DNA of 64,000 bases from Candidatus Omnitrophota bacterium (GCA_963805065.1 CAWDSS010000012.1:108174-172173); one strand, 5' to 3'. Shown: positions 42,585 to 64,000, counted from the first letter of the stretch. Translations and numbers: made by a program. Notes: generated by a model from the letters alone, not told the origin.

Positions 42585-42623
42585 TTCGCTTCATAATACT
42601 ATTAACGTAACCCAATTTCAAGC

Positions 42624-49196: not shown

Positions 49197-49236
49197 GGGA
49201 CACCCTCGATTTCAAAGCAAAGGGTGTCCCTTTTTT
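49197..49236. terminator. GC-rich hairpin with flanking A/T tracts directly after the XRE gene stop
   Basis: gggacaccc-16 nt-gggtgtccc-tttttt. The perfect T6 is on the plus strand and TGATTTAT is on the minus side, so it is possibly bidirectional. Confidence 0.5.
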
Positions 49237-49765: not shown

Positions 49766-50478
49766 ATTGCCTCGATTTCCTTTTCAATTATTTTACCTAT
49801 TTCTTTTTTAAAATGCGCTTCTAAATCTTTATAGTCCACATCTTTTTTTAACTTTAGGTCCAATAGGCCAGTCTTAATATCAAAACGATCATAGGTACGG
49901 AACCACCTTATAATAGCTTCGCGAGTCGTTTGATTGCAATATTTGAAACAAAAATCCGACAACCGCATGAATGTAATAGACAGGCAATACAAATCATAAA
50001 AGTCCTTTGCCTCCTGCCTGCCGCCCTTGGTAACCGGCTTTCCCGAAAGATCTTCTGTGGTTAGCGTTCCGGCTATGGCAAAAATCTTTCTGATATAAAT
50101 GTCTTCAAGAGAGAAAACTTTTATCCCGTTTACTATTTTTGGTTGTTTTACCAATCCTAAATAATCCTGAATAAAATCGATTTTTAACGAATCGTTTTTG
50201 CTGATAGATATTGAAAAAATGAGTAACTTAATCATATCTTCTCTTGCCTGCTCGCCAACAAGAACCACTTTCTTCTTTAAACACAAGGAAAGTAAATTGA
50301 TTACCCCCAAGACTCTGATCTTGCTGAATTTGCTTGTAAAAAAATCTAAATCCAAAGATTCCCTGTGTCGGAAATAAAATAAAGACAGCGCGGTACCGCC
50401 GCCAAGGCAAAAATCGTCAATTTTTCCCTCCAGCGCTTTTAATACCTTCTCTTGATAAGTTCGAATTTGCGGTTTCAT
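49762..50478 (-). CDS. AbiEii/AbiGii-family nucleotidyltransferase (DUF1814-type toxin)
   Basis: LGGGTALSLFYFRHRESLDLDFF is the hallmark N-terminal NTase motif of AbiEii-like proteins. 238 aa. Confidence 0.7.
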   Translation of the reverse strand: MKPQIRTYQEKVLKALEGKIDDFCLGGGTALSLFYFRHRESLDLDFFTSKFSKIRVLGVINLLSLCLKKKVVLVGEQAREDMIKLLIFSISISKNDSLKIDFIQDYLGLVKQPKIVNGIKVFSLEDIYIRKIFAIAGTLTTEDLSGKPVTKGGRQEAKDFYDLYCLSITFMRLSDFCFKYCNQTTREAIIRWFRTYDRFDIKTGLLDLKLKKDVDYKDLEAHFKKEIGKIIEKEIEAI

Positions 50479-50712: not shown

Positions 50713-51117
50713 TTATGAAGAGTTAACAACAGGGTCTTTGTTATTGTTACCTTTGTTATTCTTTTCTTTAACGCAGAGTAAGATATTACCAATAATCGCT
50801 AACCAGAATGGTGATATAATTATCAGTCCGACCCAAATTGGAGTATAGTAATATTTGGGAACATTATTTGATATCCCCATCATCATCATAATAATCGATA
50901 AAATTATTGAAATTGGAACGATTGCAATAAAAAGTAATTTTCTCCTAATTTTATTATGCAATAGAGAATAGCCAAAAACAATGAATGGTATTCCTAAAAA
51001 TGCCAAGTAAAATCCTTGGATCATTAAGATAATTAACATAAAAAATAATCCCAAAATTATATTGACTACTCCTATCACTGCACTAAAAACCTCTAAAGCG
51101 GATATTTTTTTATTCAT
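50713..51117 (-). CDS. small polytopic membrane protein, candidate Rhs immunity protein
   Basis: ORF trimmed to Met25 (AAGGAGGA RBS), starting 20 nt after the Rhs stop. Four predicted TM helices. No recognisable family. Confidence 0.55.
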   Translation of the reverse strand: MNKKISALEVFSAVIGVVNIILGLFFMLIILMIQGFYLAFLGIPFIVFGYSLLHNKIRRKLLFIAIVPISIILSIIMMMMGISNNVPKYYYTPIWVGLIIISPFWLAIIGNILLCVKEKNNKGNNNKDPVVNSS

Positions 51118-51139
51118 AGTAATCCTCCTTATAAATAAT

Positions 51140-54100
51140 CTAAGGCGAATAAGATCTAATTGATTTCTCAGGATTTCCTTTTTTTTCAATCATAGGATCT
51201 TGTGGAGAATGGATTAACTCCATGTGGCATTTCCAAACCTCTTTATCCCAAACCTGCCACCAGTTAACTCCTGTATTACTAAGACATTCATCATGAGTTT
51301 TACATGCACTATCACTAGGAGAAGTTGGACAACCCGGACCACTTTTAGTTAATCCGCAATAATTTGTTCCGGGGTAAGCCCAAGAAGTAAGATCCCACCA
51401 TTCAAAAGGAGCAGTCGCATTTTTGCTACACAATCCCCACAAATCAACTAAATTTATAGGATTATTTCCTACATGCATATACATATTTGGCCCATCGGCC
51501 ATACCACTTGGATCTTGAGTTATAAACCTGCCGATTGTTGGATCATAATATCGTGCGCCGAAGTAGATTAAACCAGATTGCTCTGCTTCTTTGGTTAGGA
51601 ATTGATGGGCATTGGCTAGATTAGCCTGAGTAAGAAGGTTGCCAAAAGCATCATAAGCGTAGGATTGGATATTTGCTCCAGTGGTGTCGCTTAGGTTAGA
51701 TACGCTGCCTAATCCATCGTAGCTATAATAGTTTTCAGGATTAGAGCTTTGTTGTGAATTAATAATCCCGCCAATCCCTCCTGCTGCGTAAGGATTGCGC
51801 AGATAACTTGCAACTGGGTCACCTGAGCCGTTGCGTTCTAAAACTACATCCATACCATCGTAGAGGTAATTTGTAGTACTTGAGCCGTTGGTGCTTGATA
51901 TCCTCTTTCCTTCCCCGTCATAGCCATAGTGGAAATCGGGGACAGTCCCTGTTGGGGACAACCCTTGAGTAAGCCTATTCTCATAATCATAACTTAGGTT
52001 TAACTCTTGAGTTGAGGATTGCTTTTTGATGAGGTTGCCGTTGTTATCATAAAGATAAAGGATTTGATCGGCTTGGTTGTAGGTGACATGGAGTGTCTGG
52101 GTGGATGTGTTACCAGGAACATCTGTGGCAGTAACAGTAATAATATTTAGGCCGTTGGATAAATTTATTGAGCAGCTAAAATTGTTCCCATTTAAAGCGG
52201 CATTGCTGCCGTTAACTGTAACTGACTGGATTCCGGATGCATCAGTGGCTGTGCCGGTTACGGTAATGGGCACTGTAGCAGGGCCGGTAATGTTCTCCTG
52301 GGTAAGCTGATTGCCGCTATTGTAGGTATAGAGATGTTCTGTACCCTGTCTTACCATACTGGTGCGGTTACCTGATGGGTCGTATTCATAGGTAGCCTGA
52401 TATGGATTTGCACTTGAGCTGTTGTTTTCTTGTGTAAGCTCGCCAACTGCATCATAAGTATAGTCAATTACGCTGTCAGGTAAGGTAACCCTGGATTTTC
52501 TTCCTGCATTATCATAAACATAATCGAAATCCGAAAGCTTATCAAGAGAGCCGGTTGTCTTTTGGTTAGTCAGATGTTTTAAGCGATGCAGAGAATCAAA
52601 AGCGTAGGTTGCCTGGACATTGTTAGGATAAACAATGGCAGCAGGATTGCCTAAAGGATCATAGGTGTAGGTGGTTGTTTTATTATTGGAATCGGTAATT
52701 GAGGAAATCCTTCCCAGCGCATCATAGCTATACTGGATAGTTTTTCCTCCCGGCAAAGTTAAGCTCGTGCGGTTACCCAGTGAATCATAGGTATATTGCA
52801 GGGTTGAATTTGCGCCAGGTGAGCTAATCTGCGTCAGGCGGCCAAGTGAATCATAAGTATAGCTGGTAGTACCTTGGGAGTCGGTCATAGAGGTTCGCCT
52901 GCCTAATGAGTCATATGAAAAGCTTACCGAAGTAGCATCAGGATAATTCATCTTCTTTAAGCGGTTAAGTGAGTCATACACATAGGTAATAGTATTACTG
53001 TTTGCGTCTGTTATGCTTGTGCGGTTTCCCACCGGGTCATAGGCATAAGATTTTGCCAAACCTAAGGGGTTAGTTTCCAGAACAAGCCGGTTCAATGAAT
53101 CATACTGGTACGTTGTTGTGTGCTGGTTCTGATCAACTACGCTTATGCGGTTACCTTCAGTATCATAGCCGAAATTAATTGTTTTGCCAAGGGGATTAGT
53201 GATGCTGGTAACATGATTATTTAAATCATAAGTATAACTTGTAGTGTTTCCTGCGTTATCGGTAGCAGACAGCTTATTACCCAAGGCATCATAGGTAAAA
53301 GACGCGGTTGAGCTGTCAGGATAGGTTATAAGTGTCAGCTGGTTAAGATTATTATAGGTAAACTGGGTAACGTTATTTGCAGCGTCCTTAAGTTGGGTGC
53401 GGTTTCCCAGTAGGTCATAGCTAAAAGTAATGGTGTTATTGAGCGCATCAGTTGAAGTTAAAAGATCGCCATAGGCATCATAGGTAAAGCTTGTCGTGTA
53501 ATTCCTTGGGTTAGTCGTGCTGATAAGTTGTCCAGAGGCATCGTAAACATTGGCTGTAAAATTACCCAGCGCGTCAGTCAGTTTGACGAGATTTCCGTTT
53601 GCGTCATAATCATATGCCGTAAGATTACCTTGCGCGTCGGTAATTGTTTTAACAAAATCAAAATCAGAGGTGTAAGTAAAGGCTGTGGTATTGCCAAGCG
53701 GGTCAGTTGCGGTTAAGAGATTGCCACGGCTGTCATAGGTATAGTTTGTGGTATTTGAATTTTTATCGGTAACGGAGATTTTATTCATATTCCCGTCCCA
53801 AACATTAAGCTGGATATTATTTTGAGCATCGGTAATTTTTGTCACCAAGCCGTAGGTATTGTATTCGTATTTGGTAATATTACCACGTGAGTCTGTTACC
53901 GTGGTAATTGGGTTGGCTGAATCAAAGGATAAACTAACCGCGTTATTGTTATTGTCCTGCCAAGATTGATATGCGCGGCCGAGTGAGTCATACTCAAAGT
54001 TAAGCGTATGGCTATTAACGTCAGTCTTAAGAATAAGCTGGTTATTGCCGTTATATTGATAGGTAGTTACGTTATTTAGCGGGTCAGTTACTTTTGTAAG

Positions 54101-55369
54101 ATTACCATTTGCATCATAGTCATATTTAAAAATCCTGTTTGCGGGATCGGTTATTTGAGTGGTCCTTCCGTTAGAATCATTAGTAAACAATAATTTCCTG
54201 CCGGAAGCATCATCTACTTCAGTAATTATTCCGTTTGCATCCCTTAAAATATTTATTGCGTTAGAGTTCCTCCCTTCAATCTTCGTCAGGCGACCGTAGG
54301 TGTCGAAATAATCTTGTTGTCCGTGTTTTCTTAAAATCGTATACGTAGAGTCTGCGTTTTTGGTAAGGGTAGAATATTCCCCTGGCGAAGGCTGATAGGT
54401 GCCGTCCGCGTTCTTGGAATAAACCGTGTAGACTGCTGTTTGATCGACTTCCACTACCGAGCCGTCAGGATATTCTTTTAAAGTATCATCAAAATTAGAG
54501 CGCCAGCCATAGCCGAACTGGCCGTTAAAGTTATCCTGAGAATTATAGTTACGGGTTAGTTCCAAAGGCAGCTCTTTTGCCGGTATGGATATATCGTTTT
54601 GGGAGGTAAACATAGTGCCGTTAGCTACATTAATCGGCTCGCCGACAACAGTAGGATTGGGATTTTGTTTCATTGGGTCAATTTGAGGAGCAGGAGGATA
54701 TCCCTTAGTTATATTAATCTTAACCGGGGTTCCTTTACCTGAATCATCTGTGCAATAGCCGGAAAGCGTATATTCTCCCAAGGGGTAAGAGCTGATACTG
54801 AAATCCGCGCTCAAAGTTCCAGAAGTTAGGGGGCTGGGAAGATAAAAGTAACGAGTTATCGGATATATGCCGTTGCCTGATAGCTGGAGCGAGGCATAGT
54901 TAATTCCATGAAAATTAGGTGCCACACTATGAAAAGAAATAGTAACAGGAAGGCTAGTCTGATTAGGCGGTATAAATGCACCGTCAACAGGCGTAACAAA
55001 AGTCAATACGGGATAAGGATTATTTACGGTTACTGAAATAGCATCGTAAAAGTTCGGTACACCACTATAACCGCTACTGGCTATGACTCCCAATTGCACA
55101 ACAGCCCCATTTACTACCCCTGAAGTATCCCAGTAAAAGGTGTGCGTGCCTGAAACTTCAGGCGGGCTAATATAAAAATATCCCAATACATAACTATATA
55201 GGGAATTAATAGGACATTGTATACTGCCTGAATAAGTCACAACCACAGGAACTATACCTCCTACTGTCTGACCATCAGCAGGAGATTCGATTTTAACGGC
55301 TGCCCAGGCTTGCATTTGCAGAAGAAACGAAAGAATTAAAAGAAAAATAATAAAAAGGCTTGTTTTCAT
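51140..55369 (-). CDS. Rhs/YD-repeat toxin with Ig-like N-terminal domains and a PLA2-like C-terminal tip
   Basis: Signal peptide and dozens of YD repeats (YTYDALGN, YQYDSLNRL, ...). The Rhs core end reads GARYYDPTIGRFITQDP...NPINLVDLWGL, followed by a 96-aa tip with NYCGLTKSGPG...DSACKTHDEC. Confidence 0.9.
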   Translation of the reverse strand: MKTSLFIIFLLILSFLLQMQAWAAVKIESPADGQTVGGIVPVVVTYSGSIQCPINSLYSYVLGYFYISPPEVSGTHTFYWDTSGVVNGAVVQLGVIASSGYSGVPNFYDAISVTVNNPYPVLTFVTPVDGAFIPPNQTSLPVTISFHSVAPNFHGINYASLQLSGNGIYPITRYFYLPSPLTSGTLSADFSISSYPLGEYTLSGYCTDDSGKGTPVKINITKGYPPAPQIDPMKQNPNPTVVGEPINVANGTMFTSQNDISIPAKELPLELTRNYNSQDNFNGQFGYGWRSNFDDTLKEYPDGSVVEVDQTAVYTVYSKNADGTYQPSPGEYSTLTKNADSTYTILRKHGQQDYFDTYGRLTKIEGRNSNAINILRDANGIITEVDDASGRKLLFTNDSNGRTTQITDPANRIFKYDYDANGNLTKVTDPLNNVTTYQYNGNNQLILKTDVNSHTLNFEYDSLGRAYQSWQDNNNNAVSLSFDSANPITTVTDSRGNITKYEYNTYGLVTKITDAQNNIQLNVWDGNMNKISVTDKNSNTTNYTYDSRGNLLTATDPLGNTTAFTYTSDFDFVKTITDAQGNLTAYDYDANGNLVKLTDALGNFTANVYDASGQLISTTNPRNYTTSFTYDAYGDLLTSTDALNNTITFSYDLLGNRTQLKDAANNVTQFTYNNLNQLTLITYPDSSTASFTYDALGNKLSATDNAGNTTSYTYDLNNHVTSITNPLGKTINFGYDTEGNRISVVDQNQHTTTYQYDSLNRLVLETNPLGLAKSYAYDPVGNRTSITDANSNTITYVYDSLNRLKKMNYPDATSVSFSYDSLGRRTSMTDSQGTTSYTYDSLGRLTQISSPGANSTLQYTYDSLGNRTSLTLPGGKTIQYSYDALGRISSITDSNNKTTTYTYDPLGNPAAIVYPNNVQATYAFDSLHRLKHLTNQKTTGSLDKLSDFDYVYDNAGRKSRVTLPDSVIDYTYDAVGELTQENNSSSANPYQATYEYDPSGNRTSMVRQGTEHLYTYNSGNQLTQENITGPATVPITVTGTATDASGIQSVTVNGSNAALNGNNFSCSINLSNGLNIITVTATDVPGNTSTQTLHVTYNQADQILYLYDNNGNLIKKQSSTQELNLSYDYENRLTQGLSPTGTVPDFHYGYDGEGKRISSTNGSSTTNYLYDGMDVVLERNGSGDPVASYLRNPYAAGGIGGIINSQQSSNPENYYSYDGLGSVSNLSDTTGANIQSYAYDAFGNLLTQANLANAHQFLTKEAEQSGLIYFGARYYDPTIGRFITQDPSGMADGPNMYMHVGNNPINLVDLWGLCSKNATAPFEWWDLTSWAYPGTNYCGLTKSGPGCPTSPSDSACKTHDECLSNTGVNWWQVWDKEVWKCHMELIHSPQDPMIEKKGNPEKSIRSYSP

Positions 55370-55371
55370 AA

Positions 55372-56490
55372 TTATTGCGGCCTTATCACCGCATTATCAA
55401 GCGGTGAAGTAATATTCAATTCAGGTGCAGTTGTGTCCAAGATTATCGCGGCTGAATAAACTTGCGACCAGTTGCCTGCAGCATCAGAGAACTTTACATA
55501 AATGGTCTTAGTACCATCACCTGTGGTTAAAGTCCAGGTTTTGGTGATGGTATATGTTTCAGGTATTAACCAAGTTATTCCATCATTTGAGAATTGCATC
55601 TGGCTAAGGCCAGAGCCGCTGTCATTAGCATTAAGAGTTAAGGTAATGCTAGTTGCATTAGTGTATTGGTTGCCATTATTTATTGTAATCGTGCCTGTGG
55701 GAGAAGCGGTATCCAAGATAATAGTACTTGAAAATGCACTTGACCAGTTACCTGCAACATCCTTGTATTTGACATAAACTGTCTTGGTGCCATCACCCGA
55801 AGCAAGCGTCCAGTTCACGGTAGTGGCATAAGCTTGGGGAGTTGACCACGTGGCGTTGTCATTAGAAAATTGCATCTGACTGAGGCCAGAATAGGAATCA
55901 GTGGCCAAGAGATTAAGGGTAACGCTAGAAGAATTAGTGTATTGAACGCCATTATTTATCTTGATTGTGCCAGTGGGAGGTGTTGTGTCAGAAGACAAAC
56001 CGTATAATTTAACCTCATAAATAACCGGAGAAATTAACTGGGCTCTGTTTATATATAGCCTGATGTAACGGTTAGCTTTTGACAAACTGTAAGTCAATTT
56101 ATAAGGGTTAGTTGTACCACCAGCAGATGAAAGATTGGAATAAAGATTAACCCAGTTGACGCCATCATTGGAAGCCTGGATATTATAATTCGTGGAGCCA
56201 AGAAACCTATTCCACCAGATTGAGATTTGCGTTAAAGAATAGGTTTGCCCCAAATCCAAGCTTAGCCACCAATAAGTTTTAGGGAATCCGCCTATCCAGG
56301 TAGTGTTAAGATTGTTATCAATTGCCTTGGATGCATCGAAGAGATAAACCAGGGAACTGGATGCTGCGGCTGAAGAAACTTTTAATTCAGTGTCGGCAAA
56401 GGAAGGATTTGAAAGCAGGCAAAAAAATAGGACCGCTAAACCTCCAAAGACTTTAACTTTTTTGGTTCCGGTCCTTAATAATTCGGGCAC
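55372..56490 (-). CDS. secreted F5/8-type-C (discoidin) domain protein with two Ig-like repeats
   Basis: Signal peptide and discoidin-like AIDNNLNTTWIG...WWLSLDLGQTYSLTQISIWW...YNIQASNDGVNW. Two ~95-aa repeats begin with DTTPPTGTIKINNG and DTASPTGTITINNG. The stop lies 2 nt before the Rhs ATG. Confidence 0.75.
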   Translation of the reverse strand: MPELLRTGTKKVKVFGGLAVLFFCLLSNPSFADTELKVSSAAASSSLVYLFDASKAIDNNLNTTWIGGFPKTYWWLSLDLGQTYSLTQISIWWNRFLGSTNYNIQASNDGVNWVNLYSNLSSAGGTTNPYKLTYSLSKANRYIRLYINRAQLISPVIYEVKLYGLSSDTTPPTGTIKINNGVQYTNSSSVTLNLLATDSYSGLSQMQFSNDNATWSTPQAYATTVNWTLASGDGTKTVYVKYKDVAGNWSSAFSSTIILDTASPTGTITINNGNQYTNATSITLTLNANDSGSGLSQMQFSNDGITWLIPETYTITKTWTLTTGDGTKTIYVKFSDAAGNWSQVYSAAIILDTTAPELNITSPLDNAVIRPQ

Positions 56491-56581: not shown

Positions 56582-58771
56582 TTAAATCATCCGTTTTGAA
56601 CTTAAAGTATCTTGCTTAAGCTCTGCTTCGCTTACGTCTTTTAGCACGGGCAACTCGATGATAAAACTAGCGCCTTTGCCTGGGCCTTCTGACTCAGCCC
56701 AAATTTTTCCTTTGTGCCTCTCGATGATTTTCTTTGCGTTGTAAAGGCCCATGCCAGTGCCTTCGGTAGAAACCTTGGTAGTGGTAAAAGGAGTAAAGAT
56801 TACGGAAAGCATATCTTTTTTAATGCCGTAGCCGTTATCAGAAAAAACAATCCTTACCTGGCTGTGGTTCAAAAGGCTTAAGGACAAAAATACTTTCTTA
56901 TCCTTCATGTCTTTCATGGCATGGATAGCATTATTCGCCAATATTACCAATGCCTGCATAAGCTCAGGCTTCTCTCCCTTTACATACACCGGCCCCTTTA
57001 GCTGGCTTATCTTTTCATAAACAACAGTCTTATCCTTAAACTGCGGGTAATACAGCTTAGAGAAAGTGTCGACCACGTCTTCAATATTTATCGGCCTGAA
57101 TTCTCCGGTTATCTTCTGGCCGAAATCGCGTATTGCCTTAACCATTCCGGAAACTCTTTTAGCAGTCTCAACTATAAAATTAAGCGAATCCGAGACTTCT
57201 TTTTTCTTATTTTCATCAGGAATATCCTTTAGCAAGTCCATCTTCAGAAATCCTGCCTGACCGAGGATTACCTGCATGGGATTATCTATTTCATGGGCGA
57301 GTGAATAAGAATAAGCATCCATTTCCTGAAGCCGTGCCTTACGCTCCTTCTCCACAACGTCCTGCCAAAACTGGCAGTTTTCAATGGCAAGTGCTGCCTG
57401 ATTAGAAAGCACTTGAAGGACATTCAAATCTTCCTGCGTGTATACGCGGCCTGATAACTTATCACCCAGTATTAGAAAACCTGAAAGTGTATTTTCAGTA
57501 AAGCTGGGCACAATTACAGAAGCACCCAATGCCTTCATTTGAGTCTTAATCTCAGCCAGTTGCTGCGCCCGTGAAACATTCTTTCCCTGGCTAAGCATTT
57601 CTAATTCATCAAACACTAAAGGTGCCCGCGATTGCTCCAGCCACTGGATAAGTGGGATATTGCTATTAATAGGATTGAGGTCGTTGAATTTATCTCCGAT
57701 ATGCGCGTCTTGTGGTATAAATTTGTTTACTTCCTTATCCAATAGATATATGCCGGCATTATCCAGCCGTAACTTTGAGGAAAAAATATGCACTATGGAA
57801 GCCAGTAATTCCCTCATATCCGTAATCCTGCTCATGTCCTTCGAGGACTCATTCAACAGAGTCTGATAATCATATTCTTTTTGGAACAGGAATCTGTCAG
57901 TCAGGCTTATGAGCCAGTTCTTAAGAGGTTCATAAAAAGCAGTAATAGCTAAAACACTAATCGCCAAAGCCAAAACTTTTGAGCTGATTATCTGGCTTAA
58001 ATACATCTGCGCCAATCCTGCAGTTAAGGCGAACACAAAGAATACAAAACCAAATAAGCCTGCGAATATCACCGCCCTGCGGATAATGACTTCAATATCT
58101 AGGAGACGATACTGTAGTATCCCGTAGGCTAATAAAAATATATATACAGAAACCAATGGATGAGTTATCGGGGGGATTGGAATGTTATAAAATAGGAAAA
58201 AATTTATGCTACCGCCAGCATATCCAATCAATGTCGCTATAAACAATATCTGAAACTGCTTTTTTCTTAATCCTTTTGATACATTAAATTCTTTATATAG
58301 TAAGTACCATGAATACATTGCAACAGTGAAGAATTTCAATAAAAGAGGATGGAATAAAATTCCTGGATTAGGCCAGTATTTAAAAAACATTTTTGCGCTT
58401 ACTCCCTGTATAAATAATGGCGAAAAAATGAAACATAATAAACCAAAATCAATTATAAAACTATATAGAACTAATTTCATCAGTTTATATCTTTTGGCTT
58501 CCTCTAAATCTATTAATTTAATTGTATGATATAGTGAACAAGAAGGTATAAACATAGTACCAACCATGAGCATCCTTGACCAAAATAAAGCGCTTTGGGC
58601 GGTACTAGCTATTTGCCACATAAAGTAACTATAATTCCAAATAGATAATGACGCACACAGTAGCCCAAAAGAAATATACTTGGTATTTCGAGTATTCTTG
58701 GTATATACAAAAATACCCAATATGTTACTTACTACTCCATTAATTAACCCACTGATTGCGTAGTAAAACAT
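56582..58771 (-). CDS. polytopic membrane sensor histidine kinase with GAF domain
   Basis: About 8 N-terminal TM helices, a GAF-like middle region, H-box SLAHEIDNPM, and an HATPase domain (ILANNAIHAM, DNGYGI, GTGMGL). Confidence 0.85.
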   Translation of the reverse strand: MFYYAISGLINGVVSNILGIFVYTKNTRNTKYISFGLLCASLSIWNYSYFMWQIASTAQSALFWSRMLMVGTMFIPSCSLYHTIKLIDLEEAKRYKLMKLVLYSFIIDFGLLCFIFSPLFIQGVSAKMFFKYWPNPGILFHPLLLKFFTVAMYSWYLLYKEFNVSKGLRKKQFQILFIATLIGYAGGSINFFLFYNIPIPPITHPLVSVYIFLLAYGILQYRLLDIEVIIRRAVIFAGLFGFVFFVFALTAGLAQMYLSQIISSKVLALAISVLAITAFYEPLKNWLISLTDRFLFQKEYDYQTLLNESSKDMSRITDMRELLASIVHIFSSKLRLDNAGIYLLDKEVNKFIPQDAHIGDKFNDLNPINSNIPLIQWLEQSRAPLVFDELEMLSQGKNVSRAQQLAEIKTQMKALGASVIVPSFTENTLSGFLILGDKLSGRVYTQEDLNVLQVLSNQAALAIENCQFWQDVVEKERKARLQEMDAYSYSLAHEIDNPMQVILGQAGFLKMDLLKDIPDENKKKEVSDSLNFIVETAKRVSGMVKAIRDFGQKITGEFRPINIEDVVDTFSKLYYPQFKDKTVVYEKISQLKGPVYVKGEKPELMQALVILANNAIHAMKDMKDKKVFLSLSLLNHSQVRIVFSDNGYGIKKDMLSVIFTPFTTTKVSTEGTGMGLYNAKKIIERHKGKIWAESEGPGKGASFIIELPVLKDVSEAELKQDTLSSKRMI

Positions 58772-60523
58772 TTATATCTCTTCTGCCTTTCTTGCTAATG
58801 CGACGTTTGCCTGATCGCCAAATGACCTAAAAATATTTATACCAATAAAACCAGCCTCACTCATTAAATCAGACAGTTCTTCTTCAGCGAAAAAATGGTA
58901 ATGTCCTTCTTTTTCTTTCTGCCTAATCTTTCCTGCGGCGCTTAATAATTTTCTGCCTTCCAGCAACTCTTCTTCTGTTTCTATATTATTTGCATAATTA
59001 CTGTATACTAATGATAAATCACTGTAAGGTTTCAAAGACGTAACTATGATTTTCCCACCTGACTTAAGGACTTCCCTTAGCCTTTTTATCACACCAACCG
59101 GATTTTTTAAATACGAAACCACTAAGTTACAACATATATTGTCAAAATAGTCTGTTTTGAATGGTAGTTGCTTTTCTAAATCTGATAAGATATATTGGCA
59201 TTTAATCAAATCAAAACAATTATATCGCCTAATCTTCAAATAATCTATCATAATGCCATTGTGTATTCTTTGGGCTTCATGCAACGCATTATATACGAAA
59301 TCTACTCCCGCATAGTAATATATGTCCGCTGACGTATATTCTTTTTTCTGGGCAGAATTATTAAAGGCTTGACTCTCTAATATACGTCTTATTAACCATG
59401 ACCCAAAATGCCCATTGCCACATCCAGCATCAAGGATCTTATCCCCCATTCTTATTTCCCCAAATGAATTAACGATAAAATCTAACAAGCTCCTGAAATC
59501 ATCGGATTTGGTTATAATTAAATATTTTGACAAATAACTATCCCAAAAATTTTTCTCGCCTTCTTTCGTAATTTTTGTAAGTGCCTTTAAACTTGCCATT
59601 TCAACTTTATTTTGTTTAACTAGATAACGGACATCTGGCTCAAAAATAGAATCAATTTGCTTATTTTCATTCTTAATATATTCAATGCAAAACTTAACTA
59701 TCTGCATGATAACAATTCTTGCTAATCTAGGGTTTTCTTGAATTTGATGAAAAGCACTAGGAATGACATAAGCTTTGCAATTATCTTTATTTTCACATAT
59801 TGCTTCTACATCTTTATAATTAACCCAAGCATCTTTTTCAGCAACCAAAAAAACTATGGGGCACTCTACATTTTTGATATCATCTTTCGTGTCTGCTAAA
59901 GAAGCCACATTATTTTTTATGGCGGCTCCTATCAAGTCATCGTGCACTTCGAAACCCATAATATCAACCATACCCCATCTCTTACCAGATCGGTATGATT
60001 CAACTAAATCTTCTCTATAGATTAAATTTAAGCTCGATTCAAGATCAACTAATCCAGCTAAACTTAATAAAAATCCGATTCTTTTATCCTGTGCACATGC
60101 TTTTATAGCAATTCTTACAGCTAGACTTGAGGCAACAATGCCTATTCTTTTCACACTAAATGTCTGTTCAACATAATCAAAAACATCTATTAAATCATCG
60201 CGCATCGTCAACAAATTCGTATTCGCAATCTCACCATCGCTTTCTCCTATATGGTCTGTATTGTCATAACGCACTACATCGAATCCATTAACCGTAAGAT
60301 AATAAGCTGTTGAAATATAATCTCGTTTTGTTTCTCCATAAGCTGGTGGTATGACAATAAAATATTTATCTTTAGATAAATTATTGACATAATCATGATA
60401 CCCTATGATAGTCTTTCCGTTTCTATTCTTAATGGCTAGCCGTTCGCTATTTATGGCTTCTTTCTTTATTTTTCTGTGTTCAAAGTCTAATTTATTATTG
60501 TGTGCGACCGATAGTAATCTCAT
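58772..60523 (-). CDS. LuxD-like acyl-ACP thioesterase/acyltransferase fused to class I SAM-dependent methyltransferase
   Basis: The N-terminal half is colinear with my recollection of LuxD: NGFDVVRYDNTDHIGESDGEI, IGIVASSLAVRIA (nucleophile), FLLSLAGLVDLESSL, PIVFLVAEKDAWV, SAFHQIQEN. The C-terminal half has MTase motif I ILDAGCGNGHFG and post-I/II blocks. Confidence 0.65.
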   Translation of the reverse strand: MRLLSVAHNNKLDFEHRKIKKEAINSERLAIKNRNGKTIIGYHDYVNNLSKDKYFIVIPPAYGETKRDYISTAYYLTVNGFDVVRYDNTDHIGESDGEIANTNLLTMRDDLIDVFDYVEQTFSVKRIGIVASSLAVRIAIKACAQDKRIGFLLSLAGLVDLESSLNLIYREDLVESYRSGKRWGMVDIMGFEVHDDLIGAAIKNNVASLADTKDDIKNVECPIVFLVAEKDAWVNYKDVEAICENKDNCKAYVIPSAFHQIQENPRLARIVIMQIVKFCIEYIKNENKQIDSIFEPDVRYLVKQNKVEMASLKALTKITKEGEKNFWDSYLSKYLIITKSDDFRSLLDFIVNSFGEIRMGDKILDAGCGNGHFGSWLIRRILESQAFNNSAQKKEYTSADIYYYAGVDFVYNALHEAQRIHNGIMIDYLKIRRYNCFDLIKCQYILSDLEKQLPFKTDYFDNICCNLVVSYLKNPVGVIKRLREVLKSGGKIIVTSLKPYSDLSLVYSNYANNIETEEELLEGRKLLSAAGKIRQKEKEGHYHFFAEEELSDLMSEAGFIGINIFRSFGDQANVALARKAEEI

Positions 60524-61975
60524 CTATATTATTTGTCTTTTTTTTGCAAGAATTAACCGGGCTGTCGAAGAACCTATATATGCCGCCATAGGTAAACCTG
60601 CCTCGCCTGTAGAATATGTTACCCATTGGCCGCATAAAAACAAACCTTCTATTAAACTTTTTTGAGGCATAATTAAACGGTCAATCTGTGATGGAACCGC
60701 TGCCCATCCGTGAGCAGAACCACCCCTATTTAAAGTATATTTATACAAATCAAACGGCGTAACCGTTTCAGTTGTAACGATTTCTTTTTCTATGTCTGGT
60801 AAAACATCTTTCGCTCTATTAATCAATTTACCAACAAATTCTTGTTTTTTGTCTTTCCAAAATTTATCGTTTATAAAAGGAACAAAAACCGTTAAGGCCA
60901 TGCTTTCTTTATTCTTGGGAGCTAACTTTTCATCGCAAACTGAAGGGAATATAAAATGCATAGGTATATTTAACTCTTTATCATTTAAATATTTTTCATC
61001 TCTTGGATCATAGTGATCTAGATTATCTCTATTGGAATAAGATAATACATAAGTAGGTTTAATTGTAGTACTCAATTTTCTGTTTAGCCCAAGATAAAGA
61101 ATGAAACCTGAAACAGAGGGACGCAAATTATTCAGTTTAATTATAAAATCTTTCTCTATACAATTTTCTCCAACCAGGTTTAAAAATACTTCGGTCGGGT
61201 CACATGCAGCAACAACAAATTTAGAACGAATATGGCCAACTCTTTTAATATTTACGCCATCTATTCTACTATTAAGTAAAGTAACCTTGTCAACCAAGTG
61301 TGATAATAATATTTCTCCTCCAAATTCTTTAAATCTTTCTGCAAATGCATTGCTCAAAACCTGCATTCCTCCTTTGGGATGATAACCTAAGTCGAAAATG
61401 AATTCGCGAAAATGAGTGATGGCAGTAACTGCTGATGCCTCCGCAGGCCTCAAGCCTAATCTGCATAACATCATTATTAAAACTGATCTCAACCTACGGT
61501 CAGAAAAATAGGTATCCAAAAGATCCTTTAAAGTTTTATCTTTTAATCTATGGTATAGCTGCACAGAATTAATTGTCTGAATAAAATGGAAGAAGTTCAT
61601 TATAGCTTTTGCTTCTCTAGGAAATTTTTCCTGCAGCTCTTCGATAGTTTTATTAAAATCATTGTGTACAGCTACAACACAATCAGACATCTGAATGGTG
61701 TCTGATGGGTCAAATCTTGTAAAATCTACTTTCTTATCAATTTCTAACTGATTAACGATATCTCTAAAAGATTTACCTTTACCGAGATTCCCCAATGAAG
61801 AAGTAAGGATATTAAATACAAATCTATTCCTTTTAAACGAAGTACAATACCCTCCTACCTTGTTATGCTGTTCAACTATCAATACCTTCATTCCCGCCTT
61901 AGCCAAATAGCAACCGCAGGTAAGGCCACCAATACCAGCTCCAATAATTATGACATCATATTTTTCTTTTAGCAT
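60524..61975 (-). CDS. FAD-dependent oxidoreductase of the phytoene-desaturase (CrtI) family
   Basis: YDVIIIGAGIGGLTCGCYLAKAGMKVLIVEQHNKVGG dinucleotide-binding motif. About 480 aa with a CrtI-like C-terminal GQWV..G.G motif. Confidence 0.75.
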   Translation of the reverse strand: MLKEKYDVIIIGAGIGGLTCGCYLAKAGMKVLIVEQHNKVGGYCTSFKRNRFVFNILTSSLGNLGKGKSFRDIVNQLEIDKKVDFTRFDPSDTIQMSDCVVAVHNDFNKTIEELQEKFPREAKAIMNFFHFIQTINSVQLYHRLKDKTLKDLLDTYFSDRRLRSVLIMMLCRLGLRPAEASAVTAITHFREFIFDLGYHPKGGMQVLSNAFAERFKEFGGEILLSHLVDKVTLLNSRIDGVNIKRVGHIRSKFVVAACDPTEVFLNLVGENCIEKDFIIKLNNLRPSVSGFILYLGLNRKLSTTIKPTYVLSYSNRDNLDHYDPRDEKYLNDKELNIPMHFIFPSVCDEKLAPKNKESMALTVFVPFINDKFWKDKKQEFVGKLINRAKDVLPDIEKEIVTTETVTPFDLYKYTLNRGGSAHGWAAVPSQIDRLIMPQKSLIEGLFLCGQWVTYSTGEAGLPMAAYIGSSTARLILAKKRQII

Positions 61976-61982: not shown

Positions 61983-63194
61983 CTAGTGATACCTTCTTAG
62001 CACCAAACAGGAATTATTCCCGCCGAAGGCATAAGAATTATTCAACGCTACATTTACATTTTGTTTTCTGGAAATATTGGGAACACAATCAATGTCACAA
62101 TCCGGATCAGGAGTTTCATAATTAATCGTGGGAGGAACAACGCTGTTCTTAATCGCCATGCAACAGGCTAATGCTTCAATTGCAGAAGCTGCACCCATGG
62201 TATGGCCAAGCATGGATTTAATAGAGCTAACAGGAATCTGTTTGTAATTATCCTTAAATACTTTTTTTATTGCCGAGCTTTCTTCTTTGTCATTTTGCAA
62301 AGTGCCTGTGCCGTGCGCGCTGATATAACTTACATCTTCTTTATCAATACCGGATTCTTTTATCGCTTCCTCCATACATGCAGCCATACCTTCTTCAATA
62401 GAAATCATCATACTGAAATCATCACAACTCAGGCCGTAACCCAAAATCTCCGCGTAAATAGGGGCTCTTCTTTGTAATGCATAGTCTAAAGATTCAATAG
62501 CTAAAATTGCAGCACCCTCACCGGGAATCATGCCTTTTCTATTCTTATCAAACGGCTGGCATTTATCCACAGCAACAGCTCCCAACCTACTAAATCCAGT
62601 ATATGCAATTTTGGAAAGTGCGTCTGCTCCGCCTGCCAGGATTAAATCCGCTTTACCAGATTGAATATTATCATAGGCATATCCTATGGCATAATTACCT
62701 GCTGCGCAGGCAGTGGTAAATATTTGATTAGGGCCACTTAATTTAAATTCTATTGATACGTTACTAGAAAGAGTGTACGCGGGATATTGATAAATCAACT
62801 GATTTCTCACTTCACTTTCGCCTTTTTTAACCCATGTCTCATCCATCTCCTCTATCCACTGCGATTCCCCCATGGTTGTTCCGATATTAACCCCTGCTTT
62901 TTGTTTTGATAAATCTCTGGGTTCTAATTTGGCGTCTCCTAAAGCAAGCTTTGCTGCCGCAATTGCCAATTGAGAGGCTCTGCCCATGAGTTTAAATTTT
63001 TTCTTATTTATGAATTCCTGTGACTTAAAGTTTTTTATTTCTCCGCCTTTATGCACAAGATAGCCTGAAGTATCAAAAGCGCTGATTTGGGAAATCCCAG
63101 ATTTGCCTTTGATTAAATTTCCCCAAAATTCATCCTTACCAATGCCAATTGATGAAACTATACCTAACCCCGTTATTACAACGCGCTTTTTCAT
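61983..63194 (-). CDS. beta-ketoacyl-ACP synthase (FabF/KAS II-like)
   Basis: RVVITGLG, active-site Cys in TACAAGNYAIG, HGTGT, GHTMGAASA, FGGNNSCLVL. Confidence 0.85.
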   Translation of the reverse strand: MKKRVVITGLGIVSSIGIGKDEFWGNLIKGKSGISQISAFDTSGYLVHKGGEIKNFKSQEFINKKKFKLMGRASQLAIAAAKLALGDAKLEPRDLSKQKAGVNIGTTMGESQWIEEMDETWVKKGESEVRNQLIYQYPAYTLSSNVSIEFKLSGPNQIFTTACAAGNYAIGYAYDNIQSGKADLILAGGADALSKIAYTGFSRLGAVAVDKCQPFDKNRKGMIPGEGAAILAIESLDYALQRRAPIYAEILGYGLSCDDFSMMISIEEGMAACMEEAIKESGIDKEDVSYISAHGTGTLQNDKEESSAIKKVFKDNYKQIPVSSIKSMLGHTMGAASAIEALACCMAIKNSVVPPTINYETPDPDCDIDCVPNISRKQNVNVALNNSYAFGGNNSCLVLRRYH

Positions 63195-63198: not shown

Positions 63199-63453
63199 CT
63201 ACTTTTTTAAATATTTTTCTGCCAAAGCAACTGCCTGCCTTAAAGAAGCTACCTTTTTAATTTCTTCATCAGGAATTGTTATCTTAAATCTCCTTTCAAT
63301 TCCCGCGAGTATTTCCACGGAAATAATTGAATCCATTCCCAAGTCTTCCACAAACCTTGCATCAAGAGTGACTTCTTCCTCCGATATATTAAGAACGCTT
63401 GAGATTATTGACTTCATTTCCTTTTCCACATTAATGTCTTTCGAATCTGCCAT
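63199..63453 (-). CDS. acyl carrier protein
   Basis: 84 aa. DLGMDSIISVEILAGIE phosphopantetheine site. Confidence 0.85.
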   Translation of the reverse strand: MADSKDINVEKEMKSIISSVLNISEEEVTLDARFVEDLGMDSIISVEILAGIERRFKITIPDEEIKKVASLRQAVALAEKYLKK

Positions 63454-63465
63454 TTGTTCCTCCGT

Positions 63466-63781
63466 TTATAAACTATCCCTTATTCTCTTAAAATCCTCTT
63501 CTTTATACATAAAGTTGCCGCAGCAAAACGGCGCCAGGGAAAAACCGTGTTTAGCAGCTAGCGTCGAAATCAGCTTAATCTTTTCTTCGGTTATATTGCC
63601 CCTGCCGATGGAAAAATTCTCGAAGCTGCCTTCAAGAGCAAGAATCATCGTCTCGGTTAAACAACTAAATATTATACCATGAGGAAAGATATTTTGCCAT
63701 TTTTTACTCTTTATATTTTGGAGTTAATAAAACTTGTCTTGTCACGCTTACAAAATGCCCGATAAAAGCAAAGTAATCCAT
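63466..63781 (-). pseudogene. frame-disrupted or multi-ORF segment between KS and ACP genes
   Basis: A 25-aa ORF (MDYFAFIGHFVSVTRQVLLTPKYKE, ATG 1 nt after the KS stop) and an ORF open from 63723 to 63466 (..KSKKWQNIFPHGIIFSCLTETMILALEG..) overlap in frames offset by +1, around an A-rich stretch CCAAAATATAAAGAGTAAAAAATGG. Confidence 0.3.
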
Positions 63782-63782
63782 A

Positions 63783-64000
63783 TTATTTTTTAAATCTTCC
63801 TAAAATCAGACTCTTATTACAGCCGTTCTGTCCGAAGGAATTTATCATTGCCGTATCAATTTTTTGTTTGCGGCTTTTGTCAGGCACATAATCCAAATCC
63901 AGGCCTGAATCCGGCGTAACGTAATTTATAGTGGGAGGAATAAAATCTTTGACCATGCTTCCTAATGCAGCGGCAGTTGCCAGGCCTCCTGATGCGCTAA
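63783..64000 (-). CDS. C-terminal end of a second ketosynthase-family protein (5' part outside window)
   Basis: The minus-strand translation reads ..ASGGLATAAALGSMVKDFIPPTINYVTPDSGLDLDYVPDKSRKQKIDTAMINSFGQNGCNKSLILGRFKK*. This is colinear with the C-terminus of the KS at 61983..63194 (PPTINYETPDPDCDIDCVPN). Confidence 0.7.
   Translation of the reverse strand, partial: SASGGLATAAALGSMVKDFIPPTINYVTPDSGLDLDYVPDKSRKQKIDTAMINSFGQNGCNKSLILGRFKK

Follow-up and report, generated by a model that had tools for sequence, protein, structure and literature searches.

What is made, and for whom, by an enzyme that joins an acyl-transferase-like domain to a methyltransferase in one polypeptide? The question is raised by the gene at positions 58772-60523 (minus strand) of the window, the whole stretch of 64,000 nucleotides of Candidatus Omnitrophota DNA analysed here. 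The original prediction described this gene as a LuxD-like acyl-ACP thioesterase fused to a SAM methyltransferase, and saw in it a possible producer of fatty-acid methyl esters or of a related volatile or lipid. The nearly constant association of the gene with a sensor kinase turns this reading from a biosynthetic lipid or volatile enzyme into one half of a signalling module.

The reading frame is uninterrupted, begins with ATG, spans exactly 58772-60523 and encodes 583 aa. Its description as a LuxD-like acyl hydrolase/transferase followed by a class I SAM methyltransferase is drawn from the ORF itself, Pfam and NCBIfam searches, alignment and an AF2 model (pLDDT 89.2, pTM 0.88), the pTM suggesting that the two domains form a fixed unit. 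About 117 of 120 database matches show the same architecture, clustering at 50% identity gives at least 150 clusters that carry it, and it is present in 153 species-representative genomes out of the 185,579 species of the GTDB representatives. Because it recurs in this way across database, clusters and species genomes, a sequencing error or chimeric junction is ruled out, and the linker between the domains carries invariant residues of its own. The family includes members from Nitrospirota (among them Ca. Nitrospira defluvii), Omnitrophota, Planctomycetota, Verrucomicrobiota, Nitrospinota, Binatota and Desulfobacterota, with a distribution that is strongly accessory, cassette-like and rare. 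P0120, a possible bridge to PhcB, is a truncated and degenerate member of the same family. No characterised fusion of this kind is found in PDB sequence or fold searches, in NCBIfam or in the full-text literature. The original prediction is thus upheld in its claims of a single polypeptide with both domains and of no characterised example, and the gene encodes a genuine two-domain enzyme of a widespread, unstudied family.

The N-terminal domain (aa 47-301; 59621-60385, minus strand) is assigned to the LuxD-like α/β-hydrolases by PF02273, by the LuxD structure 1THT and by Foldseek. It scores 94.7 bits against the Pfam Acyl_transf_2/LuxD model PF02273 (cut-off 20.3), as compared to 34 bits for Hydrolase_4, the best generic hydrolase model. 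A genuine LuxD, encoded by a lux-cassette plasmid, is aligned by BLASTP at 28% identity (E = 7e-22; aa 48-302 against LuxD 32-286), and the A-S-S-L elbow of the fusion is aligned with LuxD in this direct comparison. When the family profile is searched against PDB sequences, LuxD 1THT reaches 143 bits (E = 6e-41) and the next α/β hydrolase 67 bits. In Foldseek, 1THT ranks first for the AF2 model, with a TM of 0.84 over the target and an rmsd of 2.8 Å. The putative catalytic triad consists of S133 in the nucleophile elbow A-S-S133-L-A-x-R, D231 and H259, which align to the LuxD elbow and to its “NDxWV” and “SSHDL” motifs. Over 196 family sequences, on which all residue counts given here are based, S133 is kept in 193 (Cys in 2 more), D231 in 190 (Glu in 5 more) and H259 in 195. 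These residues are in register with Ser114, Asp211 and His241 (V. harveyi numbering), which we take to be the triad of LuxD. The LuxD likeness originally proposed for the N-terminal ~290 aa, with its ASSL elbow and C-terminal His region, therefore holds in sequence and in fold, and generic hydrolases do not match better than LuxD.

Likeness does not amount to orthology in this case. The fusion reaches 95.3 bits with the NCBIfam LuxD model NF052253, as against a cut-off of 420, and 92.9 with PRK13604, as against 529; luxC, luxE, luxA and luxB are absent beside the window fusion, and lux genes are absent from 80 related loci. Because the NCBIfam cut-off is missed and these companion genes are lacking, the fusion is not a LuxD orthologue. 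The two proteins share an α/β-hydrolase subfamily (28% identity over ~255 aa, top fold match), an A-x-S-L-[SA]-x-R elbow with Asp and His in register, an R-Y-D...H-x-G block and a C-terminal “EPD” motif. They differ in that Glu94 is invariant in the family and is replaced by Leu in LuxD, and in that the family member is fused to a methyltransferase and partnered with a sensor kinase. An H-x-G-E-S-x-G block at aa 91-97 is specific to the family. The LuxD alignment extends into the “EPD” motif at aa 295-297, close to the helical linker (aa 302-345; 59489-59620, minus strand), which is delimited by invariant columns, the AF2 model and the LuxD alignment. In this region the model places helices at 298-315, 320-331 and 341-353 with high confidence, and E308, W327 and Y330 are invariant.

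The C-terminal half (aa 343-583; 58775-59497, minus strand) is recognized as a class I SAM methyltransferase by Pfam models, conservation and fold. Residues 343-559 are above the cut-offs of Methyltransf_23, 31, 11, 25 and 12. Motif I, “DAGCGNGHFG”, occupies aa 365-374 (L-D365-A-G-C-G-N-G), and D365, G367, G369 and D408 are kept in 196/196 sequences. Together with the PF02273 match, these results agree with the domain content expected at the outset. Beyond the fold, the half is generic and has no specific relative. Foldseek yields ~1100 class I matches at E ≤ 1e-3, and O-, N- and C-methyltransferases match equally well (~E 1e-11, TM ~0.5), C- and N-methyltransferases scoring equal to or above carboxyl O-methyltransferases. 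The named models behave alike: BioC (TIGR02072) reaches 39 bits (E = 6e-10) with a cut-off of 185, other methyltransferase families score similarly, JHAMT is found at E = 2e-4 and Mtf2 at 24 bits in one relative. In a profile search with this half, the score drops from 154 to 62 bits between the family and any stand-alone methyltransferase. Residues specific to the family are K498-P-x-x-D502...Y507, R524 and Q571; K498 is kept in 194, D502 in 195 and Q571 in 195 of the 196 sequences, and R524 in 181 (Lys in 8). K498 and R524 could bind a carboxylate. The invariant His of a PKS-type C-methyltransferase dyad is absent from the 196-sequence family alignment. Given so generic a methyltransferase half, a carboxylate as the site of O-methylation is a guess.

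The gene next to the fusion in the window encodes a histidine kinase of 729 aa (56582-58771, minus strand) with HisKA_7TM, GAF, HisKA and HATPase domains, identified by Pfam and as the conserved partner gene; its start codon abuts the stop codon of the fusion. Of 77 evaluable genomes, which belong to at least 7 phyla, 76 have a HisKA_7TM-GAF kinase as the next gene. At the level of species, it lies directly downstream on the same strand in 76 of 80 loci, three of the misses being contig ends, and start and stop codons overlap by 4 bp in 11 loci. In the 1.3 Mb covered, 80 ORFs have a 7TM match, and 76 of these are at position +1. The most divergent member keeps the pairing, as do Binatia and an archaeon-labelled contig (L085-L087). 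A direct fusion of kinase and enzyme genes is not present among 312 collected proteins. The original prediction included neither this kinase partner nor the variable sensor cassette described below.

Regulatory domains are also found on the enzyme itself. Some family members have N-terminal REC-PAS-PilZ, PilZ or START domains, the START/SRPBCC type being present in many. In the REC-PAS-PilZ-enzyme forms the PilZ motifs are canonical, the REC domains lack the acidic D12/D13 pair, and the kinase start overlaps the enzyme gene. Judged from these REC-fused forms, the kinase may act upstream of the enzyme, and not as a sensor of its product. Downstream of the kinase, REC or HD-GYP genes occur in some loci; REC-HD_5 or GAF-HD_5 genes follow it in L002, L005 and L090, and neither the window nor Nitrospirales show such genes. 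Across the 80 related loci, the pair has no response regulator as a constant companion. In the window, a single-domain response regulator (REC, by Pfam; 48724-49137, minus strand) is a candidate phospho-acceptor of the kinase. It keeps DD, D57 and K109 and is parted from the kinase by an insertion. As it is 84% identical to the REC which directly follows the kinase of L088, a JGI metagenome contig and the closest syntenic relative of the window, it is the counterpart of that protein; its identity to the RECs of distant loci, 31-35%, is uninformative.

On the other side of the fusion, the window operon has the order ACP-KAS-desaturase-fusion-kinase. The desaturase, a phytoene-desaturase-family (CrtI/CrtD-like) FAD oxidoreductase of 483 aa (60524-61975, minus strand; Amino_oxidase PF01593), has a stop codon which abuts the start codon of the fusion. 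Because its score with crtI_fam is 132 bits and the cut-off 238, it is not a carotenoid equivalog. It is preceded by a FabF-type β-ketoacyl-ACP synthase of 403 aa (61983-63194, minus strand), which matches both the N and C ketoacyl-synt models of Pfam, scores 416 bits with NF005589 (cut-off 387) and is 87% identical to its counterpart in L088. A dedicated acyl carrier protein of 84 aa (PP-binding; 63199-63453, minus strand) is 91% identical to that of L088. The C-terminal end of a second ketoacyl synthase, recognized by frame translation, runs off the window (63785-64000, minus strand) and is 80% identical to the L088 KAS at 2736-3977. ACP, KAS, KR, FabA and desaturase genes are in operon with the pair at PVC/Omnitrophota loci, fatty-acid-synthesis genes flank the pair in L002, genes for FadL-type channels are nearby at some loci, and in L089 the same sensor family has another acyl toolkit as its partner. 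ACP, KAS and desaturase genes were rejected as conserved context; they are confined to PVC/Omnitrophota-type loci and absent in Nitrospirales. Promoter and terminator scans over 55-64 kb give counts at shuffle expectation and are uninformative. Ladderane papers describe FASII clusters with phytoene-desaturase-like genes and no LuxD-methyltransferase gene (PMC2649909, PMC9821293). An anammox ladderane cluster was dropped as an explanation on this ground and because the family occurs mostly in non-anammox phyla.

Comparison with L088, the only syntenic relative with known context, reveals a hypervariable block (58099-61819, spanning most of the desaturase gene, all of the fusion gene and the coding region of the 7TM sensor) that has no DNA homology to this one close relative. 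By blastn, homology is lost at 61820 and regained at 58098, and both DNA flanks are ~82% identical; the flank proteins are 80-91% identical. The desaturases are 38% identical. The fusion gene is present in the window and absent in L088, where the kinase backbone occurs alongside ACP, KAS and desaturase genes; the fusion is therefore not essential to that operon. Within the kinase, the 7TM region is 30% identical and the remainder 82-89%. GC3 is uniformly low in the block (0.27-0.29). The 7TM sensor region (aa 1-230; 58082-58771, minus strand), delimited by per-domain identities, ranking and GC3, has a GC3 of 0.287 as compared to 0.463 in the rest of the kinase gene.

The window 7TM region is 49-53% identical to the sensors of two distant operons which bear the fusion (L090 and L091), and 39-43% identical to those of Nitrospirales and Omnitrophota. 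When 111 7TM domains are ranked by similarity, sensors without a nearby fusion occupy ranks 73-111; P0314 has a third sensor type. Enzyme and 7TM sensor thus co-vary like a cassette, in a pattern of pherotype type: production genes and membrane sensor are variable, and the flanks, including the kinase core, are conserved. Co-transfer of the desaturase with this cassette was considered and dropped; no donor signal is found for it, and it is equally distant (34-38% identical) from all its counterparts. The co-transfer of enzyme and sensor could reflect protein-protein docking and not recognition of a ligand.

The reading that we prefer, at a probability of roughly 45%, is that the fusion is a signal synthase which releases and methylates an acyl chain, is matched to its own 7TM receptor and is exchanged with it in the manner of a pherotype cassette, the whole being analogous to quorum sensing of the Phc and DSF types. 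On the ACP encoded in the operon, a specialised fatty-acyl chain would be built by the ketoacyl synthases and the CrtI-like FAD desaturase of the same operon. The Ser133-Asp231-His259 domain would take this chain off its thioester, as LuxD does with myristoyl-ACP, acyl-ACP being the presumed substrate. The fused methyltransferase would then methylate the released product, most simply by conversion of the carboxylate to a methyl ester, the site of methylation being likewise presumed; such a sequence of release from ACP and esterification is plausible. The methylated product would be an uncharged, membrane-permeant lipid, and it would be bound by the 7TM domain that matches it, in the HisKA_7TM-GAF kinase transcribed with the enzyme. 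The kinase in turn would pass the signal to REC-only regulators and to those of the HD-GYP (c-di-GMP) type. Signal control of the enzyme itself, via N-terminal REC-PAS, PilZ (c-di-GMP) or START (lipid-binding) domains, would apply in other lineages. Having adapted to each other, enzyme and sensor domain would be exchanged horizontally as one cassette, in the way known from pherotype loci, and we infer that the system measures cell density.

The main competitor to a signal synthase is a regulated lipid enzyme. The kinase would sense a membrane property or an unrelated cue, and the fusion would be the effector that diverts acyl-ACP or modifies lipid, in a homeostasis of the des-desKR kind whose product is not a signal. 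This is unlikely in our estimate, and yet it draws on several facts: in the REC-PAS-PilZ-enzyme forms, the enzyme stands where a response regulator has its output, subject to c-di-GMP, and the kinase start overlaps the genes of these forms; fatty-acid-synthesis genes flank the pair in L002; and the L088 kinase works without the fusion. On the other hand, it gives no account of a 7TM subtype that co-varies and co-transfers with the enzyme while the cytoplasmic core does not. Furthermore, membranes are not built from methyl-esterified free acids, the fused REC domains lack the DD pocket, and a rare, accessory, cassette-like distribution (153 of 185,579 species) is unlike that of a housekeeping homeostat. 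The stand-alone biosynthesis of the original prediction, with methyl esters or a related volatile or lipid as end product and the kinase as a coincidental or purely transcriptional neighbour, is compatible with the domain chemistry and with the dedicated acyl-building operon of the window. It is nevertheless disfavoured and improbable: chance does not account for two genes that lie side by side in 76/77 evaluable genomes of several phyla and overlap at their stop and start codons, and regulatory domain fusions and sensor co-variation indicate functional coupling.

Two further explanations borrow from known pairs of methyltransferase and hydrolase. In sensory adaptation of the CheR/CheB type, the methyltransferase would methylate and the hydrolase demethylate carboxylates on the 7TM kinase, and REC-fused forms would be activated like CheB. 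In its favour, an esterase-fold domain is joined to a methyltransferase and encoded strictly next to a receptor kinase, REC-fused variants exist, and the enzyme co-varies with the membrane domain of the receptor. It is nonetheless highly improbable, as neither CheR (PF01739) nor CheB_methylest (PF01339) gives a Pfam match at E ≤ 0.01, the hydrolase is specifically LuxD-like and not a generic esterase, and a lipid substrate is indicated by START (lipid-binding) fusions and by operons with dedicated ACP, KAS and desaturase genes; moreover, the co-varying part is the membrane domain, and Che-type methylation sites are cytoplasmic. Slightly less credible still is a masking cycle of the BioC/BioH type, in which the methyltransferase would methylate the carboxyl of malonyl- or dicarboxyl-ACP for extension by KAS and the hydrolase would unmask it, yielding an α,ω-dicarboxylic or unusual chain. 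That BioC is among the best-named methyltransferase matches, that dedicated ACP and KAS genes adjoin the fusion in the window and that JGI auto-annotation calls relatives “pimeloyl-ACP methyl ester carboxylesterase” are consistent with it. However, the BioC score is far below cut-off and equalled by other families, the hydrolase matches LuxD and not BioH, ACP and KAS are absent from most loci (including all Nitrospirales), the kinase being always present, and the linkage to kinase, REC and PilZ is left unexplained.

Apart from a few AHL systems, almost nothing is known of cell-cell signalling in the phyla, uncultured or difficult to grow, that drive much of the nitrogen cycle and of the chemistry of groundwater and sediment. 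In this respect, the enzyme-sensor pairing suggests that nitrifiers and other environmental bacteria possess a new cell-signalling system based on lipids, and a two-gene module with a defined enzyme and a defined receptor, present in >150 species genomes, is testable. A wider proposal is more tentative than the preferred reading itself: the fusion and HisKA_7TM may constitute an unrecognised, phylogenetically broad class of fatty-acyl methyl-ester-type autoinducer systems, in which synthase and 7TM domain are exchanged as specificity cassettes and which is wired to c-di-GMP via PilZ and HD-GYP. If a methylated lipid is indeed sensed by the 7TM domain, the logic of Phc and DSF reaches far beyond Proteobacteria via a non-homologous synthase; Pfam HisKA_7TM, an uncharacterised sensor domain, gains a function and a first ligand class; and pherotype-like cassette swapping holds for lipid as well as peptide signals. 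Under the homeostatic alternative, the gain would be a new response-regulator output (REC-PAS-PilZ-thioesterase-methyltransferase) tying two-component and c-di-GMP signalling to acyl-ACP metabolism. The fusion may, in addition, lead from acyl-ACP to fatty-acid methyl esters in a single polypeptide.

Among known systems, the pherotype loci share the genetic pattern. The agrBDCA locus of Staphylococcus and comQXPA of Bacillus combine hypervariable signal-production genes and a hypervariable N-terminal membrane sensor of the kinase with conserved flanks, which include the cytoplasmic part of the kinase. The same variable-block pattern is observed between the window and L088, in one comparison of close relatives; agr and com signals are modified peptides, whereas the production genes here are lipid enzymes. 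BioC and BioH resemble the fusion as a class I methyltransferase and an α/β hydrolase that act around ACP-bound acyl chains, with a weak BioC match. They differ in that scores are far below the equivalog cut-offs, the hydrolase is LuxD-like, biotin genes are absent and the kinase linkage finds no explanation.

The DSF systems of Xanthomonas and Stenotrophomonas share more of the proposed circuit. In these systems the synthase RpfF acts as an acyl-ACP thioesterase and is controlled by a REC domain, while RpfC serves as transmembrane sensor and RpfG as HD-GYP regulator (PMC4504480); the rpf-1 and rpf-2 variants differ in the synthase and in the transmembrane input domain of the sensor, in strict association (PMC4517397). 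A thioesterase synthase, a multi-TM kinase receptor, an implication of FadL and a REC domain that acts on the synthase post-translationally are the proposed points of likeness, to which some loci may add an HD-GYP c-di-GMP phosphodiesterase as output. Conversely, RpfF is a crotonase unrelated to LuxD or to methyltransferases, and neither the fusion nor its neighbours contain an ECH/crotonase domain; the signals of DSF systems are unmethylated free cis-2-enoic acids; and RpfC, a hybrid kinase, has 5 TM helices and lacks a GAF domain.

The phcBSR(Q) system of Ralstonia has the same gene arrangement. In its phcBSR operon, PhcB presumably converts 3-OH-acyl-ACP to the methyl ester that PhcS senses (PMC4549310, PMC11960443); the products of this methyltransferase are methyl 3-hydroxymyristate or -palmitate, PhcS is a sensor kinase, and PhcB and PhcS co-diversify by signal type. 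PhcB is not among the named matches of the fusion or of the profile search with its methyltransferase half, and tblastn on a plasmid collection matches only luxD and generic methyltransferases. The LuxD-methyltransferase family differs from Phc in its explicit LuxD-like thioester-cleaving domain, in its HisKA_7TM-GAF sensor and in its phyla. Compared by description, both systems place the gene of a SAM-methyltransferase synthase directly upstream of that of a membrane sensor kinase in one operon, and the synthase-first order of phcBSR (PMC11960443) is also that of the window, where fusion stop and kinase start abut, and of 76/80 loci.

The enzyme is encoded in the window by a single unbroken ORF of 583 aa (58772-60523, minus strand), whose N-terminal half is LuxD-like, as had been proposed. 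The Pfam model of the LuxD family, Acyl_transf_2, matches residues 47-301 with 94.7 bits versus 34 bits for the top generic hydrolase model, and the LuxD structure 1THT reaches 143 bits with the fusion-family profile versus 67 bits for the next hydrolase, so that generic hydrolases do not outscore LuxD. Aligned by BLASTP with a genuine LuxD, one encoded in the lux cassette of a plasmid, the fusion is 28% identical over ~255 residues (E = 7e-22), and the A-S-S-L elbows of the two proteins are in register. 1THT is also the top Foldseek match of the AlphaFold model of the fusion (pLDDT 89.2, pTM 0.88), with a TM of 0.84 over the target. Orthology with LuxD itself is ruled out by the NCBIfam LuxD score (95 bits, under a cut-off of 420 bits) and by the absence of lux genes from the window neighbourhood of the fusion.

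The C-terminal half is the class I methyltransferase (MT) that was expected, since five Pfam models of this class match residues 343-559, all above their cut-offs. In fold searches it matches O-, N- and C-methyltransferases equally (TM ~0.5), and profile searches found no close stand-alone relative: past the fragments of this family, scores fall from 154 to 62 bits. The BioC model gives 39 bits (cut-off 185), and the invariant His of PKS C-methyltransferases is absent from the family alignment. The essentially invariant Lys498 and the near-invariant Arg524 (Arg in 181/196 sequences, Lys in 8) would fit an anionic substrate, which is only a hint.

Both domains are present in ~117 of 120 database relatives, 153 relatives were confirmed among 185,579 species genomes scanned, and E308 and W327 of the linker are invariant in 196 aligned family sequences; the protein is thus a single two-domain polypeptide and not two separate genes joined by error. 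When 1.84 billion representatives were scanned exhaustively with HMMER, 573 proteins matched at E <= 1e-30, and the match spans both domains in most of the best 150 clusters listed. In the same 196 sequences, Ser133 is kept in 193 (Cys in 2 more), Asp231 in 190 (Glu in 5 more) and His259 in 195, the SAM-binding D365, G367, G369 and D408 are each kept in all, and the family-specific MT residues K498, D502 and Q571 in 194, 195 and 195, respectively. Conservation of the catalytic, SAM-binding and linker residues argues that both halves are selected as catalysts and that the junction is integral to the protein. One member (P0044, alignment A1) carries Cys for the nucleophile Ser, as in 2/196 sequences, and is a possible thiol-nucleophile variant; another, N-terminally truncated (P0120), has Asn at this position and is possibly inactive. 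No structure, curated family or paper found describes the fusion or its kinase pairing, in agreement with the original remark that no characterised example was known.

The conserved partner of the fusion is the 7TM-GAF kinase, and the ACP, KAS and desaturase genes of the window are not conserved context. In the window this HisKA_7TM-GAF-HisKA-HATPase histidine kinase (56582-58771, minus strand) is the next gene, its start codon abutting the stop codon of the fusion. A homologue of the 7TM region lies directly downstream of the fusion, on the same strand, in 76 of 80 species-level loci, with a 4-bp gene overlap in eleven pairs; 76 of the 80 ORFs with a 7TM match in 1.3 Mb occupy position +1, and any other gene family occurs in no more than 28/79 loci. 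Three of the four loci without pairing have <530 bp of contig remaining past the fusion. The fourth (L062, 9449-11728, in the genome of L049) lacks a 7TM kinase within 10 kb and is the sole genuine exception; it is a second fusion copy, the paired copy lying elsewhere in the same genome. The pairing is kept in the most divergent member (30% identity), in Binatia and on a contig labelled archaeal. Many Nitrospirales partner kinases have two tandem 7TM modules (L023, L024, L045 and about 20 Nitrospira loci, for example L029 at ~11696), the second of which starts at ~aa 257-265 and represents a subtype of its own, with 20-29% identity to the fusion-associated 7TM.

The window operon runs, on the minus strand, through a partial KAS (63785-64000, its first gene within the window), ACP, a FabF-like KAS, a CrtI/CrtD-like FAD oxidoreductase, the fusion and the kinase, with gaps of 0-7 nt from ACP through kinase and of ~330 nt between partial KAS and ACP. 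The locus of a close relative (L088, a JGI contig) is syntenic: KAS-(NAD-binding protein)-ACP-KAS-desaturase-kinase-REC-carrier-domain protein-T2SS E/F...PilM/N. Protein identity is 91% for ACP, 87% for KAS, 80% for the second KAS, 84% for REC, 91% for T2SS-E and 82% for T2SS-F, 38% for the desaturase and 68% for the whole kinase, and the fusion is absent from this 18-kb locus (the locus, not the whole genome). By domain, the kinase is 30% identical in the 7TM and 82-89% in the linker, GAF, DHp and catalytic regions. DNA homology (~82%) extends from 63741 to 61820, breaks, and resumes from 58098 to 56582. GC3 is uniformly low throughout the intervening 3.7 kb (58099-61819; desaturase 0.269, fusion 0.272, 7TM 0.287) and is 0.463 in the kinase outside the 7TM.

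The window's kinase is a mosaic. It shares 30-31% identity in the 7TM and 86% in the remainder with its close relatives P0314 and P0315, and 50-53% in the 7TM and 26-27% in the remainder with P0316, P0317 and P0320. The operons of P0316 and P0320 also contain LuxD-MT genes (P0012 and P0010), whose identity to the fusion of the window is 45-47%. When 111 7TM domains were ranked by identity to that of the window, those adjoining or co-operonic with a fusion had a median identity of 35%, with 39-43% in fusion-linked Nitrospirales and Omnitrophota; those with no fusion nearby (L088, P0314, L089) and the second tandem modules ranked 73-111, at 20-31%. The ranking indicates that a particular sensor subtype accompanies LuxD-MT across phyla. 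From one syntenic close relative (L088) and domain-level comparisons, it seems that in the window's lineage this 7TM subtype was exchanged together with the enzyme gene and the kinase core was not.

Other differences between the two loci have been observed. L088 carries between its first KAS and ACP a 367-aa NAD(P)-binding gene (3977-5080, Shikimate_DH/Semialdehyde_dh-like), in place of which the window has ~330 nt of intergenic sequence (63454-63784); in L012 the gene just upstream of the fusion joins START to a related NAD-binding domain. A 7.46-kb insertion relative to L088 (49122-56581) parts the window's kinase from its REC and appears to be a mobile island of the polymorphic-toxin and TA type, encoding an F5/8-type-C and bacterial-Ig protein (55372-56490), a 1409-aa RHS-repeat/DUF6531 protein (51140-55369), an unknown 158-aa ORF of 28% GC (50713-51189) and an AbiEii toxin with HTH antitoxin (49235-50478); in L088 an RHS gene stands elsewhere, at the start of the locus. 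Between the kinase operon and a T2SS/type-IV-pilus-like cluster (40619-47912) lie the REC-only regulator (48724-49137) and, after it, a 263-aa protein (47926-48717) whose sole recognised domain is a C-terminal phosphopantetheine-binding carrier, the 190 aa N-terminal to it having no domain assigned; carrier protein and REC are conserved in L088 (69% and 84% identity, respectively). The minus strand of the window also holds a giant ORF of 2553 aa (32229-39890), a tRNA-Thr(tgt), tRNA-Tyr(gta) and tRNA-Gly(tcc) cluster (4204-4728) and a tRNA-Met (12763-12839), beyond which no other Rfam family reached its gathering score within the window.

Wider operons are found in PVC/Omnitrophota-type genomes. 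Their order is FabG-KAS-ACP-KAS-desaturase-desaturase-fusion-kinase-REC-REC-GAF/HD-GYP in L005; PlsC-like acyltransferase, START/NAD-binding protein, fusion, kinase, REC, KAS, KAS, ACP, FabA in L012; HTH_17-(FadL)-(FabA)-KAS-KR-fusion-ACP-KAS-nitroreductase-desaturase-kinase-REC-REC-(GAF-HD-GYP) in L090 and L091; and fusion-kinase-kinase-REC/HD-GYP, with fatty-acid-synthesis genes on the flanks, in L002. In the Binatia locus NtrC-type regulators follow the pair and a FadL-type channel is nearby. In L089 the same 7TM-GAF sensor family is joined to HD-GYP in place of the kinase (8001-10052), and the upstream part of its operon (2428-8014) encodes HTH_17 and a FadL-like channel together with ACP, a ligase (AMP-dependent), a reductase (NAD-dependent) and a B12-binding radical SAM enzyme, possibly another lipid-signal toolkit, serving a related receptor. 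A small HTH_17 protein (~64 aa) heads several operons (L002 9630-9830, L086 5795-5989, L089 2428-2622, L090 4054-4248, L091 5288-5485), often near a FadL/Toluene_X outer-membrane channel (L086, L089, L091), and the former could serve as a dedicated regulator, the latter as a route of transport for a hydrophobic molecule. A 340-aa protein family is encoded on the opposite strand, 2-3 genes downstream of the kinase, in L003 (15143-16156) and ~42 Nitrospirales loci (two clusters), the L003 counterpart being a Methyltransf_2 (PF00891) O-methyltransferase with dimerisation domain; its recurrence may reflect either synteny within the lineage or a link in function.

In other lineages, domain fusions connect the enzyme with both signalling and lipids. 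Of the 209 full-length members, 85 lack any N-terminal extension, as in the window, 88 have one of 60-250 residues and 36 a longer one, the types being START/SRPBCC lipid-binding, single or double PilZ (PilZ-PilZ-LuxD-MT in Ca. Nitrospira defluvii) and REC-PAS-PilZ-PilZ. Most PilZ copies retain the c-di-GMP motifs RxxxR...[D/N]xSxxG. The fused REC domains keep Asp57 and Lys109 and lack the acidic D12/D13 pair, and so may be atypical receivers; the REC-fused enzyme genes overlap the 7TM kinase start.

From what the sequences show, namely intact LuxD-type and SAM-methyltransferase centres, a near-obligate partnership with the 7TM-GAF kinase and co-variation of enzyme and membrane sensor, we infer acyl release, methylation and product recognition by the 7TM. 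In the window, the ACP, KAS and desaturase encoded in the same operon would make the chain, which the LuxD-like domain would off-load from its carrier thioester and the MT would methylate, most simply to a methyl ester. The cognate 7TM domain would recognise the resulting hydrophobic molecule, with output via REC and HD-GYP proteins and, in other lineages, feedback on the enzyme via its PilZ or REC domains. The whole scheme, from acyl release and methylation to 7TM recognition and REC/HD-GYP output, is given a probability of roughly 45%. Its main rival, that the enzyme is simply a metabolic output of the kinase, agrees with the REC fusions but leaves the specific co-variation of the sensor domain with the enzyme unexplained, and is considered rather unlikely. 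A stand-alone biosynthetic enzyme accounts for fewer of the observations and is improbable; the same shortfall makes a CheR/CheB-like reading more improbable still and places a BioC/BioH-like one last.

The proposed action of the enzyme would resemble that of LuxD together with a PhcB-type methyltransferase, PhcB being likened by its published description. PhcB is thought to turn a 3-hydroxyacyl-ACP into a methyl ester and PhcS is the sensor, in a phcBSR operon (PMC4549310, PMC11960443). The circuit is similar to DSF signalling, in which an acyl-ACP thioesterase synthase, a multi-TM kinase, HD-GYP output and REC control of the synthase are found (PMC4504480), and in the rpf-1/rpf-2 variants the synthase and the TM input domain of the sensor differ and are strictly associated (PMC4517397). 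This co-variation resembles that of the LuxD-MT/7TM module which, unlike DSF signalling, has no crotonase. The agr and comQXP pherotype loci have conserved flanks and a variable core, a pattern paralleled by the window compared with L088. The LuxD-MT module is placed in none of the compared families, being no LuxD equivalog and having no crotonase, with PhcB compared by description; LuxD-MT and its 7TM kinase may be read as a new form of a known kind of system, the lipid-signal synthase/receptor module.
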